NCBI RefSeq assembly: GCF_003334315.1
Contig: NZ_QOWR01000009.1
Strand: one strand, 5' to 3'
From: Escherichia coli
Lineage (GTDB): Bacteria; Pseudomonadota; Gammaproteobacteria; Enterobacterales; Enterobacteriaceae
Length of the DNA: 64,000 nucleotides
Shown: in pieces, positions 42,136-56,827 of the stretch
Layout: the number at the start of each line of letters is the position of its first letter
How positions within the stretch are numbered: position 1 is the first letter of the stretch
Notes under the pieces: model-generated
The model's input: the letters and a program-made list of their open reading frames with translations, nothing else
Database searches by the model: none
Told to the model about the DNA's origin: nothing
Position numbers and translations under genes: made by a program

Positions 42136-42328
42136 TATTCCCCTCTCCAGTTAATTATTGAGAATAATTATTACTTCACCTGATAAGCTGCGGATATCAC
42201 ATTCCTAACCGCAGCTATTTGTGAATCTTTTCACAGTTTAAATTCCCCCGCACGCTTAGCCTTAATATCAGTACATTATTATTTACTAAACGCTCGCCTT
42301 AATTACCTATAGCATTAAGGAAGATCAC

Positions 42329-43567
42329 ATGCCGCAACAAAATTATCTGGATGAACTCACTCCGGCTTTTACGTCTTTACTGGCGATTAAAGAAGCCTCT
42401 CGCTGTTTATTATGTCACGACGCTCCCTGTAGTCAGGCTTGCCCGGCACAGACCGATCCGGGGAAATTTATTCGCTCAATCTACTTTCGTAATTTTAAAG
42501 GCGCTGCCGAGACAATTCGCGAAAATAATGCCCTCGGTGCCGTTTGTGCCAGAGTGTGCCCGACGGAGAAATTATGCCAAAGCGGTTGTACCCGTGCCGG
42601 TGTTGATGCTCCCATTGATATCGGCCGCTTACAGCGTTTTGTTACTGATTTTGAACAACAAACCGGAATGGAAATTTATCAGCCCGGTACTAAAACGCTC
42701 GGCAAAGTCGCGATTATTGGCGCAGGTCCTGCCGGATTGCAGGCCAGTGTGACACTGACAAACCAGGGTTATGACGTCACGATTTATGAGAAAGAAGCGC
42801 ACCCCGGTGGCTGGTTGCGTAACGGTATTCCGCAATTCCGGTTACCGCAATCAGTGCTGGATGCAGAGATCGCCCGTATTGAAAAAATGGGCGTGACCAT
42901 TAAGTGCAACAACGAAGTCGGTAACACACTCACCCTTGAGCAGCTGAAAGCAGAAAACCGCGCGGTACTGGTCACCGTGGGGTTATCAAGCGGTTCCGGG
43001 CTACCGCTGTTTGAGCATAGTGACGTTGAGATTGCCGTCGACTTCTTGCAACGTGCACGACAGGCGCAAGGCGATATCAGCATTCCACAAAGCGCATTAA
43101 TTATCGGCGGCGGTGATGTCGCGATGGACGTAGCCAGCACGCTGAAAGTTCTCGGCTGTCAGGCGGTAACTTGCGTAGCGCGTGAAGAGTTAGATGAGTT
43201 TCCGGCAAGCGAAAAAGAGTTTACCAGCGCCCGGGAGCTGGGCGTTTCGATCATCGATGGATTCACGCCAGTAGCCGTGGAAGGCAATAAAGTCACGTTT
43301 AAGCATGTACGGTTATCGGGCGAACTGACGATGGCGGCAGATAAAATTATTCTCGCCGTCGGTCAGCATGCCAGACTAGATGCCTTTGCGGAGTTAGAGC
43401 CGCAGCGTAACACCATCAAAACACAAAATTACCAGACCCGCGACCCGCAAGTCTTTGCTGCTGGCGATATTGTTGAGGGTGACAAAACCGTGGTCTATGC
43501 CGTGAAAACCGGGAAAGAAACCGCCGAGGCGATTCATCACTATTTAGAGGGAGCTTGCTCATGTTAA
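42329..43567 (+). CDS. preT: NAD-dependent dihydropyrimidine dehydrogenase subunit PreT (412 aa)
   Basis: Fe-S cysteine cluster plus FAD/NAD GxGxxG (IIGAGPAG). Confidence 0.92.
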
Positions 43568-48893: not shown

Positions 48894-48909
48894 ACTGTGA
48901 AATCACTCA
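48894..48909. promoter_or_regulatory. Consensus CRP site (TGTGA-N6-TCACA) in mgl/galS intergenic region, with adjacent gal-operator-like half
   Basis: tgtgaaatcactcaca 48894-48909; followed by gattgaaagcggttacat. Confidence 0.45.
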
Positions 48910-48923
48910 CAGATTGAAAGCGG

Positions 48924-53073: not shown

Positions 53074-55065
53074 TCAGAAGCGATAATCCACTGCCATAAA
53101 GTAACGACGTCCGTCTTCGTTATAGCTGTAGTCGTCACGACTGAGATCCTTGTCGCCAAGGTTCAGCACGCCTGCGCGCAGTTTGACGTCTTTAGTCACC
53201 TGCCAGGCCGCGCCGGTATTCCAGATGGTATAACCGCCCGGTGTTTTAGCCGTCGCGCTGTCGGCGCGTTTCTGCCCGGTATAGTGCCCAGAAACATAGA
53301 ATGACCAGTCTTCCAGCGCCAGCGGTTTCCAGTCCAGCGTACCGTTAGCAGTATGGAACGGCAGATCGGATAGCGGTTTGTTTTCGCCGTTGCTGACATC
53401 ACGACCATCGTTGTAGGTGTAGTTGATCGACAGTTTCCATTCATCGTTGAACGGAATTTTCAGTTCGGTTTCCACGCCCTGAATACGAGCTTTGTTAACG
53501 TTGTAGTAGCTAAATACCGGTATGCGCCGTCCGTTAGCGCCCGTCTCAAAACCAACAAAGTTTTGGTAGCCCGGTGCAGCGTTGACGTCAGACGTACGGC
53601 TGATGCTGATACGATCTTTCACATCGTTACGGAAAACGGTAACGCTGGATTCAACCCCTTCCAGCCAGCCTTCTTCACCCATGTAGTAAAGCCCCAGCTC
53701 CCAACTTTCGCTGGTTTCTGGTTTCAGATCCGGGCTACCCACAATCTTACATGCGCCACGGCAGGAATTGCTCGTCCAGTCAGGGCTAAGTTGCAACAGA
53801 GAAGGTGCTTTAAATGCCGTCGCCCAGCCCCCTTTCACCGTTACGGTGTCGGTGGCGTTATAAACCAGGTAGGCACGCGGACTCCAGTGTTCACCGTAGG
53901 TTTCATGATCGTCCATACGTACGCCGGTCGTCAGCGCCAGCGGCTCGAAGATCCGCCATTCATCTTCCACAAACAGCGCGTACTGGCTGGCAGACGTTTT
54001 GGAGCTGGTTCCCCCGGTCAGGTTCACCGCATCGCTAAGTTTGTCGTGACGCCATTCACCGCCAACCGTGAGAAACTGATTAATCGCCGTCAGCGGCAAC
54101 GTGTATTTGCCGTCGACCGTATTGCTTTCGGAAGTTATCGGGCTGCTGTTGCCAGGGTTTTTGTTCTCGACTTTCTCACCGTAGTATTTCAGTTCGCTGG
54201 TGCCGTAATCCCAACGCCCATTATGGCTGACGGAGTAGTTCTGGCGTTCCAGGCGGTTTTTGTCCAGCGAGTCGGAATCACGATCCTGACGGTCGAAACC
54301 GTATCCGGCAGTAAAATCGTGATTTTGATTCGGTGTCCAGGCAAATTCGACATTGCCGTCGCGGCTGGAGAATCCTTCAATACGCGGCGTTTCTCCGGTA
54401 TCGGTGGTCGTTGAGTTTTGCGGGTCATCCTTTTCACGTTTTGCCAGGCTGCCGTAAGCTTTCATTCCCAGCACGCCGTCAATTAATGGTCCGCTGGTAA
54501 AGAACTGACCGTTATAGGTATCACCGCGATCGCGATGTTCCTGAACGGTGGTATCGACGGTAACGGTGCCCGACCATTTCTGACCGATTTTTTTGGTGAT
54601 GATATTCACTACACCGCCGAGCGCATCGGAACCGTACAGCGACGACATCGGGCCACGGACCACTTCAATACGTTCGATGGAATCGACCGGGATCCAGTTC
54701 AGATCGAAATCATTGTGGCGGAAGACGGCATTGCGGGAGTTAACGCGTTTACCGTCGACAAGAATCAGGGTGTAGCTGCTGTCCAGACCACGAATACTAA
54801 CGCCCTTACGGTTATCCCCTTCGTTCGTCAGTTGTACGCCAGGCACTTCTTTGAGGACATCCTTCAGATTCTGTACCGGTTTTCGCTGCAGGTCTTCCTG
54901 GGTAATGACGCTGATACTGGCGGGTGCATCTTTAAGGTTTTGTTCAACGGAAGATGCAGTGACAACCATCGTTTCGCCATCATCATCGACCGCTAACACA
55001 GGCCATGCACAAGAAATAGCGGACAAACACAGCCCGACCCGTACGAAAGGGTTCAACCTAAACAT
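53074..55065 (-). CDS. cirA: TonB-dependent catecholate siderophore/colicin I receptor CirA (663 aa)
   Basis: Signal peptide, TonB box region, C-terminal ...YRF. Confidence 0.95.
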
Positions 55066-55234
55066 TCCATATCTCCATGAGGTAACTACGAAAATAAAAT
55101 GGGTTATCGCTCACATCTTCTTCACGTCCCCTTGCGTACGGCAGCATCGCGGTGGACTTATTTGTATGCAGGTGATCATCCCAGAAAGCCGGACCAGCCT
55201 CTGATTTGTCAGCCTTTTTTGATTGCGGCGTAAC

Positions 55235-55259
55235 GATAATGCAAACGATAACAATTATC
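55235..55259. promoter_or_regulatory. Fur-box-like sequence upstream of cirA
   Basis: gataatgcaaacgataacaattatc resembles the GATAAT-rich Fur consensus. Confidence 0.4.
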
Positions 55260-55311
55260 AATCCAAATGTTAAATTTTATATCCGCATGATTTGTCAGGG
55301 AAATGGAATTG

Positions 55312-55336
55312 AAAAAGCCCTCTCGGTTGAGAGGGC
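55312..55336 (-). terminator. Intrinsic terminator after lysP
   Basis: Hairpin gccctctc-ggtt-gagagggc (55317-55336) with T-run on minus strand (aaaaa 55312-55316 on +). Confidence 0.65.
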
Positions 55337-55357
55337 TTAGCAAGGAAGGGAGGAAAC

Positions 55358-56827
55358 TTATTTCTTATCGTTCTGCGGGAACTTCATTTCGCTGTAGCGT
55401 ACGAAGTGAGTTCCTTTAATCAGCTTGTAGCCGAACCAAATAATCAGGAACAGCGGGATACCAATATACGTTGCCGCTACGCCGCCCCAGTCAATAGTAT
55501 CTTTCAGGAACGCTTCGTAGTTCTGGCCCAAAGTGATAATCAGACACAGAATGAATGCGAAGATCGGCCCCAATGGGAAGAAACCTGAACGGTACGGCAG
55601 ATCGTTAATGTCGTGTCCCTGCAATACGTAACCGCGACGGAAGCGATAGTGGCTAATGGCAATCCCCAGCCAGGCGATAAAACCCGTCATCCCGGAGGTA
55701 TTCAGCAGCCACAGGTATACCGTCTGGTTGCCAAACATGGAGGTCAGGAAGCACAGACCGGCAATCACCGTCGTCGCATACAGCGCATTACGCGGCACGC
55801 CACCACGCGACAGTTTAGCGAAAATGCGCGGCGCTTTACCGTCACACGCCAGGGTGTACAGCATACGAGTAGACGCATACATACCGGAGTTACCGGCTGA
55901 CAGCACCGCCGTCAGAATAACTGCGTTCATCACCGCCGCCGCAGAGAGCAGACCCGCGTGCTGGAACACCAGGGTGAACGGACTAACGCTGATGTCTTTA
56001 ACATCGTTACGCAGCAGGCTCGGATCGGTGTACGGAATAATGAGGCTGATAATCAGGATCGCGAACACATAGAACAACAGGATTCGCCAGAACACCTGAC
56101 GTACCGCGCGTGGAATGTTTTTCGCCGGATCTTCGGACTCGCCTGCAGCAATACCGATCAGCTCGGTTCCCTGGAAAGAGAAGCCGACAATCATAGCTAC
56201 GCCGATCATCGCCGCAAAACCACCAGCAAACGGCGCTTCGCCGATTGTCCAGTTGCTCCAGCCCGCAGGCTGCGCGCCTTTGAAGATACCGATAATCATC
56301 AGCACGCCAACGATGATAAAGACAATAACTGTCGTGACTTTGATCAGTGAGAACCAGTATTCCGCTTCACCAAAGCCACGAACTGAGATGTAGTTCAGCA
56401 GGAAGATAACGCCGAGGAACAACGCACTCCAGATCCAGCCCGGTGTATCCGGGAACCACCAGCTCATGACCAGCTGAGCTGCAACCAGGTCAACGGCGAT
56501 AGTCACCGCCCAGTTGTACCAGTAGTTCCAGCCCAGCGCGAAGCCAAAGCCTTCTTCAACATAGTTCTGACCGTAAGTGGCAAACGAACCGGAAACCGGC
56601 ATATATGCAGCCAGTTCACCGAGACTGGTCATCAGGAAGTAAACCATCAGGCCAATCAACATATACGAGAGCAATGCCCCGCCCGGACCTGCCTGAGAAA
56701 TCGTTGCGCCAGAGGCAACAAAAAGACCTGTACCGATGGAACCGCCAATGGCAATCATCGTCAGGTGACGCGCCTTTAATTCACGGCGTAAGCCCGGCGC
56801 TTCTGTGGTTTTAGTTTCGGAAACCAT
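55358..56827 (-). CDS. lysP: Lysine-specific permease LysP (489 aa)
   Basis: APC-family amino acid permease. Confidence 0.95.
   Translation of the reverse strand: MVSETKTTEAPGLRRELKARHLTMIAIGGSIGTGLFVASGATISQAGPGGALLSYMLIGLMVYFLMTSLGELAAYMPVSGSFATYGQNYVEEGFGFALGWNYWYNWAVTIAVDLVAAQLVMSWWFPDTPGWIWSALFLGVIFLLNYISVRGFGEAEYWFSLIKVTTVIVFIIVGVLMIIGIFKGAQPAGWSNWTIGEAPFAGGFAAMIGVAMIVGFSFQGTELIGIAAGESEDPAKNIPRAVRQVFWRILLFYVFAILIISLIIPYTDPSLLRNDVKDISVSPFTLVFQHAGLLSAAAVMNAVILTAVLSAGNSGMYASTRMLYTLACDGKAPRIFAKLSRGGVPRNALYATTVIAGLCFLTSMFGNQTVYLWLLNTSGMTGFIAWLGIAISHYRFRRGYVLQGHDINDLPYRSGFFPLGPIFAFILCLIITLGQNYEAFLKDTIDWGGVAATYIGIPLFLIIWFGYKLIKGTHFVRYSEMKFPQNDKK

Follow-up and report, generated by a model that had tools for sequence, protein, structure and literature searches.

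lysP terminator, Fur-operated tandem promoters and an sRNA-controlled leader in the lysP–cirA spacer of Escherichia coli

The window analysed here is a stretch of 64,000 nucleotides of Escherichia coli DNA (assembly GCF_003334315.1, contig NZ_QOWR01000009.1), and the locus under study is the spacer between lysP and cirA. Both genes and the elements of the spacer are co-oriented on the minus strand, with lysP on the upstream side of cirA. From the positions of the cirA ATG and the lysP stop codon, the spacer spans 55066-55357 and is 292 bp long, the length given in an earlier description made from the letters of the window (the sequence-only reading), compared with 293 bp in K-12 MG1655.

53074-55065, minus strand: cirA open reading frame, 663 aa (annotated as cirA in the E. 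coli matches)
55065-55063, minus strand: cirA start codon, ATG (from the open reading frame 53074..55065)
55358-56827, minus strand: lysP open reading frame, 489 aa (annotated as lysP in every E. coli match)
55360-55358, minus strand: lysP stop codon, TAA (from the open reading frame 55358..56827)

Of 5426 complete E. coli genomes, 5248 matched a region of 421 bases around the spacer at ≥99% identity, always between cirA and lysP; all ten matches listed were 100% identical. Relative to K-12, the window carries single-nucleotide differences at 55194 and 55164 and a 1-nt deletion between 55166 and 55165, all three inside the cirA leader and downstream of the promoters, while the sequence from the lysP stop codon down to 55195 (terminator, promoters and operator) is identical. 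The comparative set consisted of 80 loci, one genome per species, encoding CirA relatives at 73-100% identity; spacers were aligned for the 63 enterobacterial species in which lysP adjoins cirA.

The element closest to lysP is an intrinsic terminator, which starts 19 nt past the stop codon.

55338-55311, minus strand: lysP intrinsic terminator (terminator scan; 10-bp stem 55338-55329/55324-55315, loop AACC, then TTTC)

On the minus strand the terminator reads AAGCCCTCTC-AACC-GAGAGGGCTT-TTTC (stem 55338-55315), with six GC pairs among the 10 bp of the stem and a T-run, TTTTT (55316-55312), that includes the last two T's of the stem. Its fold of -18.2 kcal/mol (z -5.1) was matched in stability by 0 of 200 shuffles. 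The T-run is absent after the stem on the plus strand, so the terminator is unidirectional. The sequence-only reading had put a lysP terminator at 55312-55336, which identifies the right element and misplaces its upstream edge by about 2 nt. Per-sequence hairpin detection showed a hairpin of ≤ -8 kcal/mol adjoining a T-run in 62 of the 63 orthologous spacers, and in nearly all of them its distance from the lysP stop codon was no more than about 30 nt. The stems differ in sequence among orthologs (for example CCCGCUC/GAGCGGG, CCUUCCC/GGGAAGG and GGCGCG/CGCGCC) and the hairpin is kept, which indicates that the terminator structure is maintained by compensatory change; the RNAalifold consensus on the terminator alignment was weak because the stems were misaligned. 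A GC-rich stem-loop and a U-run after the stop codon, conserved through compensatory change, identify this element as the lysP terminator.

Two spacers of the comparative set are enlarged on the lysP side. Salmonella enterica subsp. arizonae (L008:2156-2240) has a REP-like element (GCCGGATAAGGC...) between the lysP stop codon and the terminator, and Klebsiella pneumoniae (L028) has a lysP–cirA spacer of 498 bp with the terminator 218 nt past the stop; promoter, operator and proximal leader are unaffected by the insertion and the expansion. A lysP 3'-UTR-derived, Hfq-dependent sRNA was considered on account of a CU-rich, anti-Shine-Dalgarno-like tract (UUUCCUCCCUUCCUUGCU, 55341-55357) together with the hairpin and U-tail. 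This candidate was rejected, the tract not being conserved outside Escherichia, and a literature search found no report of an sRNA derived from the lysP 3' UTR.

Downstream of the terminator, two overlapping cirA promoters and a Fur operator occupy the same bases.

55235-55265, no strand: Fur operator (three overlapping 19-bp matches with 6-bp spacing, at 55235, 55241 and 55247; 7-1-7 core at 55246-55260)
55230-55272, no strand: published Fur DNase I footprint (as tabulated in PMC2189734, Table 3; coordinates converted in this analysis)
55273-55268, minus strand: p1 -35 hexamer, TTAACA (promoter scan, 17-bp spacer; moderately conserved across 63 orthologs)
55250-55245, minus strand: p1 -10 hexamer, TATCGT (promoter scan; TG precedes the -10)
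55261-55256, minus strand: p2 -35 hexamer, TTGATA (promoter scan; same bases as the Fur core)
55238-55233, minus strand: p2 -10 hexamer, TATCGT (promoter scan)
55237, minus strand: inferred p1 start, A (173-nt K-12 leader via alignment; 172-nt leader here)
55224, minus strand: inferred p2 start, A (160-nt K-12 leader via alignment; 159-nt leader here)

The sequence-only reading had described a GATAAT-rich, Fur-box-like sequence about 170 bp upstream of cirA; its letters, GATAATGCAAACGATAACAATTATC on the plus strand at 55235-55259, agree fully with that description and lie 170-194 bp upstream of the cirA ATG. A search of the window for the 19-bp Fur consensus GATAATGATAATCATTATC with ≤3 mismatches returned no match, the cirA site having 5 mismatches, after which all positions were scored against the 19-mer and a 7-1-7 motif was added. 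The best match at the box was 14/19 (55241-55259), overlapped by weaker matches in the two registers 6 bp away (55235 and 55247). Matches of ≥14/19 numbered 11 when counted by strand, at 8 distinct positions of the 64-kb window and several of them inside genes, and a single match of 14/19 is statistically marginal alone. The 15-bp 7-1-7 motif TGATAATNATTATCA matched at 12/14 positions at 55246-55260, and gave 2 hits in the 64-kb window vs 0.13 expected from shuffles.

The transcription starts were placed by carrying published K-12 leader lengths over the alignment of K-12 with the window, which includes the 1-nt leader deletion. K-12 cirA has two promoters, whose leaders measure 173 nt for p1 and 160 nt for p2, according to Griggs 1987 as cited in PMC2588501. 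The resulting starts are 13 nt apart and lie 7-8 nt downstream of the TATCGT -10 boxes (7 nt for p1). For the footprint, Table 3 of PMC2189734 gives the DNase I-protected region at cir reported by Griggs & Konisky 1989 as NC_000913.2 2244957-2244999; 1978 was added to obtain the NC_000913.3 coordinates 2246935-2246977, anchored on the cirA start (2244791 vs 2246769), and 2191705 was subtracted to obtain window positions, anchored on the end of lysP. The window positions of footprint and starts both depend on coordinate conversion made in this analysis. The Fur box holds the p2 -35 hexamer, both -10 hexamers and the inferred p1 start. Inside the converted footprint are the box, the 31-bp cluster of matches, both -10 hexamers, the p2 -35 hexamer and the p1 start, and the p1 -35 hexamer is within it save one base. 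An arrangement of the same kind has been published, in which the model of Chen et al. 2007 placed three overlapping sites (walkers) at cir in a 31-bp cluster with a maximum of 20.7 bits (PMC2189734).

Footprint or ChIP data and mapped starts had been named by the sequence-only reading as the checks on its proposal of iron-regulated control. The box falls inside the footprint as tabulated in PMC2189734, Fur binding upstream of cirA has been detected by ChIP (PMC4676285), and the published starts, at 55237 and 55224, fall just past the -10 hexamers of the box, so that the start-site mapping is consistent with it. Iron control itself is supported by the footprint, by the ChIP data, by derepression of cirA in fur mutants (PMC4676285) and by induction of a cirA reporter with an iron chelator (PMC3879352); the Fur-1 iModulon includes cirA.

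Across the 63 aligned spacers, the only non-coding blocks with ≥80% identity were the T-run, ATTGATAAT, TTATC, TGTGAG and ACCTCATGGAGA. The blocks on the operator side are as follows.

55262-55254, minus strand: Fur core block ATTGATAAT (nearly invariant in the 63-spacer alignment)
55251-55247, minus strand: TTATC block (≥80% conserved in the 63-spacer alignment)
55240-55233, minus strand: ATTATCGT block (mostly conserved in the 63-spacer alignment)

The core TGATAA-N3/4-WATY was present upstream of cirA in 63 of the 80 loci, and the match to the Fur 19-mer rises to 17/19 in Klebsiella, Raoultella, Pluralibacter, Yokenella and Kosakonia. Across orthologs, Fur box and ATG are separated by about 91 to 204 nt. 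Two members of Escherichia differ in the core. Escherichia sp. MOD1-EC7003 (L002:2300-2330) has the Fur core AATAATTGTTATC, with G to A in the otherwise invariant TGATAA and a CirA N-terminus that is 100% identical, and in E. albertii (L007) TTATT replaces TTATC. These variants could weaken Fur repression in the two lineages.

The GATAAT-rich stretch might be read as the AT-rich sequence of a sigma-70 promoter that resembles a Fur site by chance, with iron control of cirA being indirect. The box bases do double as promoter hexamers, so that conservation could reflect promoter function alone, and 14/19 matches do occur elsewhere in the window by chance. The conservation of ATTGATAAT plus TTATC goes beyond the hexamers, however, the orthologs approach the Fur consensus (17/19) and not TTGACA/TATAAT, and the 7-1-7 motif is enriched over shuffles. 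The DNase I footprint obtained with purified Fur, as recorded in PMC2189734, covers exactly this stretch and already refutes the chance resemblance, and ChIP binding upstream of cirA (PMC4676285) speaks against it as well; we consider such a coincidence extremely unlikely. The element is more than Fur-box-like: with its consensus match, its overlap with promoter elements and its conservation in orthologs, it is the Fur operator itself, placed over two tandem promoters.

The remainder of the spacer is the cirA 5' leader, in which the sites of trans-acting RNAs are close to the start codon (leader positions below are relative to the cirA ATG).

55237-55066, minus strand: cirA 5' leader from p1 (published leader length and K-12 alignment)
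55116-55106, minus strand: RyhB pairing site AUGUGAGCGAU, -51..-41 (complementary to RyhB nt 41-51)
55084-55075, minus strand: OmrA/B pairing site UACCUCAUGG, -19..-10 (read from the sequence; overlaps the Shine-Dalgarno GGAG at 55076-55073)
55083-55072, minus strand: ACCTCATGGAGA block (conserved in the 63-spacer alignment)

RyhB pairs with the leader over 11 bp that include one G-U; an A at -43 in most other genera makes the duplex fully Watson-Crick. The site contains the conserved block TGTGAG (55115-55110), present near -50 in 69 of the 80 loci. Wang et al. changed the cirA TGTG at 55115-55112 to GTAT with oligo JW5381, and the RyhB–cirA pairing was validated by compensatory mutations (PMC4666370, including Figure S3). 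At the OmrA/B site, UACCUC pairs with nt 5-10 (GAGGUA) and UGG with nt 2-4 (CCA) of the sRNA, and CCTCATGGAG was found in 72 of the 80 loci. Compensatory mutations proved the OmrA/B–cirA pairing at -19..-10, and a deletion of -149..-54 left expression and OmrA/B control largely intact (PMC2588501). In the same study, Guillier & Gottesman suspected further post-transcriptional control in the dispensable part of the leader (PMC2588501). Papers citing Salvail et al. 2013 attribute to it that cirA translation is repressed by Hfq and that RyhB antagonises this repression. In EHEC, the island-encoded, horizontally acquired sRNA Esr41 represses cirA (PMC5286369). The room for a regulated leader that the sequence-only reading saw in the long spacing is thus occupied by published control through OmrA/B, RyhB/Hfq and, in EHEC, Esr41.

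Pairing energies were less informative. Unconstrained duplex folding of RyhB and of OmrA/B with the leader gave meaningless full-length duplexes. In a windowed scan the RyhB seed site was the second-best local duplex at -21.7 kcal/mol, and the best local duplexes of RyhB and OmrA/B with the leader were no more stable than those with shuffled leaders (RyhB seed -21.7 vs a shuffle mean of -21.2), although a test of this kind is not one in which a short seed pairing should be conspicuous. Support for the sRNA sites therefore comes from their conservation and from published genetics, and not from energy. Poor conservation and variable length mark the 5' two-thirds of the leader, which are unalignable across genera and largely deleted in Enterobacter, Leclercia and Atlantibacter. 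Across Enterobacteriaceae, the conserved islands of the spacer are the Fur operator and the pairing sites of RyhB and OmrA/B, and the 5' two-thirds of the leader are variable spacer.

The length of the p1 leader (172 nt), and the fact that a long leader is kept in most genera, could suggest that it is a folded RNA acting in cis, for instance a riboswitch or thermosensor, in place of a platform for trans-acting sRNAs. RNAalifold does propose a local hairpin of the RyhB block with -27..-16 as well as a long-range helix of 5 bp that reaches codons 2-3. The global fold of the leader, however, showed no excess stability relative to shuffles (z +0.59), the RNAalifold consensus of the leader was weak (-7.2 kcal/mol, with a covariation term of +0.31 and thus no net covariation), and comparison of 54600-55800 with Rfam, using a permissive E-value, gave nothing at gathering score and no family for the leader. 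Its best scores were sub-threshold (Phe_leader, 25.2 bits vs 55; suhB, 20.3 vs 41) and both were on the terminator hairpin. A structured element would also have to tolerate the unalignable, and in three genera largely deleted, 5' two-thirds as well as the experimental -149..-54 deletion (PMC2588501), and we regard it as very unlikely. The TGTGAG block has a possible reading at the DNA level, as a CRP half-site, since TGGGTTATCGCTCACA at 55100-55115 fits the CRP pattern with 2 mismatches. Griggs and colleagues are said to have described an effect of cAMP-CRP on cir in 1990, which such a site could explain without any RNA element. Two-mismatch CRP matches in the window are nevertheless at chance level (21 vs 25.7 expected), the second half-site is not conserved, and some 120 nt separate the block from the transcription starts upstream of it. 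A matched ryhB mutant showed that the same four bases act through RyhB pairing (PMC4666370), and a CRP site at this position is hardly credible. The cirA leader behaves as a docking platform for trans-acting RNAs and not as a riboswitch-like element.

One further block of the leader is moderately conserved. It reads CACCTGCATA at 55174-55165 and CCACAYCTGCA in other genera, was found in about 46 of the 63 orthologous leaders, and is missing from the genera with short leaders. It has a potential 5-bp pairing with cirA codons 2-3 (ACCUG with UAGGU, 55060-55056), and is located inside the dispensable -149..-54 deletion of Guillier & Gottesman (PMC2588501). It might be an undescribed control element, possibly masking the initiation region via codons 2-3, an idea that we think improbable. 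An upstream open reading frame in the leader, with an ATG at 55178 and 22 codons here, was rejected; the 1-nt indel relative to K-12 shifts its frame and the region is not conserved.

Similar motifs were seen elsewhere in the window. The only other 7-1-7 Fur hit (≤2 mismatches) is TGAGAATAATTATTA at 42159-42173, which lies between yeiS and preT (yeiT), some 160 bp ahead of the preT start at 42330. This hit is the counterpart of an untested Fur cluster that Chen et al. 2007 (PMC2189734) predicted at yeiT -163 with 19.6 bits. At 42220-42235, 47 bp downstream of the Fur-like site, the palindrome TGTGAATCTTTTCACA is a perfect one of CRP type. At 48896-48911 the perfect CRP pattern TGTGA-N6-TCACA (TGTGAAATCACTCACA) lies in what coordinate conversion identifies as the mglB-galS spacer, and presumably represents the CRP site already known from mgl/galS control.

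The lysP–cirA spacer is almost certainly composed of a terminator, Fur-operated tandem cirA promoters and an sRNA-controlled leader. In the mechanism proposed, the lysP transcript would be ended by the intrinsic terminator 19 nt after the stop codon, which would insulate cirA from upstream transcription. The cirA promoters are two overlapping sigma-70 promoters with hexamers built from the same GATAAT/TTATC repeats as the operator. When iron is sufficient, Fe2+-Fur dimers would multimerise over about 43 bp, covering both promoters and blocking RNA polymerase; under iron limitation Fur would depart and p1 and p2 would fire. Promoter occlusion is inferred from the overlap of operator and hexamers, an overlap seen in this window, with the binding taken from the literature. 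Post-transcriptional control would be concentrated in the last ~55 nt of the 172- or 159-nt leader, where Hfq would keep cirA translation low. Low iron would also derepress the Fur-repressed RyhB, which would pair at -51..-41 and relieve the Hfq-dependent repression. OmrA/B, under EnvZ-OmpR control, would pair over the ribosome-binding site and repress, and may override the activation by RyhB.

The locus is the same as that of the E. coli K-12 cir promoters p1 and p2 and Fur operator (Griggs, Tharp & Konisky 1987; Griggs & Konisky 1989), and as far as these studies are quoted in later work, the leader lengths, the position of the footprint and the three-site Fur cluster agree; the differences are strain-level ones in the leader only, with each leader 1 nt shorter here. 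The fepA-fes, fhuA, fiu and fecA promoters likewise have overlapping GATAAT-type hexamers with 6-bp spacing over the -35 and -10 elements and are repressed by promoter occlusion (PMC2189734). Unlike these, cirA has a single operator serving two tandem promoters, and its leader, unusually long at about 170 nt, brings in sRNA control. At the RNA level, RyhB activates cirA translation by antagonising Hfq repression, which resembles shiA, and the 5' end of OmrA/B pairs over or near the cirA ribosome-binding site, as it does at ompT and ompR (PMC2588501). The cirA leader differs from shiA and from ompT/ompR in joining RyhB and OmrA/B inputs of opposite signs, with Esr41 as a third, repressive input in EHEC.

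CirA is the catecholate-siderophore receptor and the entry gate for colicins Ia and Ib (PMC5286369, PMC3879352), and also for microcin V according to the title of a further paper. Experiments going back to the late 1980s have established how cirA is regulated, beginning with Fur at the promoter and continuing with RyhB/Hfq, OmrA/B and Esr41. Every element of the spacer is already published and none is novel; Fur binding, transcription starts and sRNA effects are known from the literature, the sequence features, statistics and conservation come from this analysis, and its addition is comparative confirmation only. CirA is, in addition, an entry route for siderophore-conjugated antibiotics. As the receptor is an uptake and entry gate that admits colicins and microcin V, the regulation of cirA is of practical interest.
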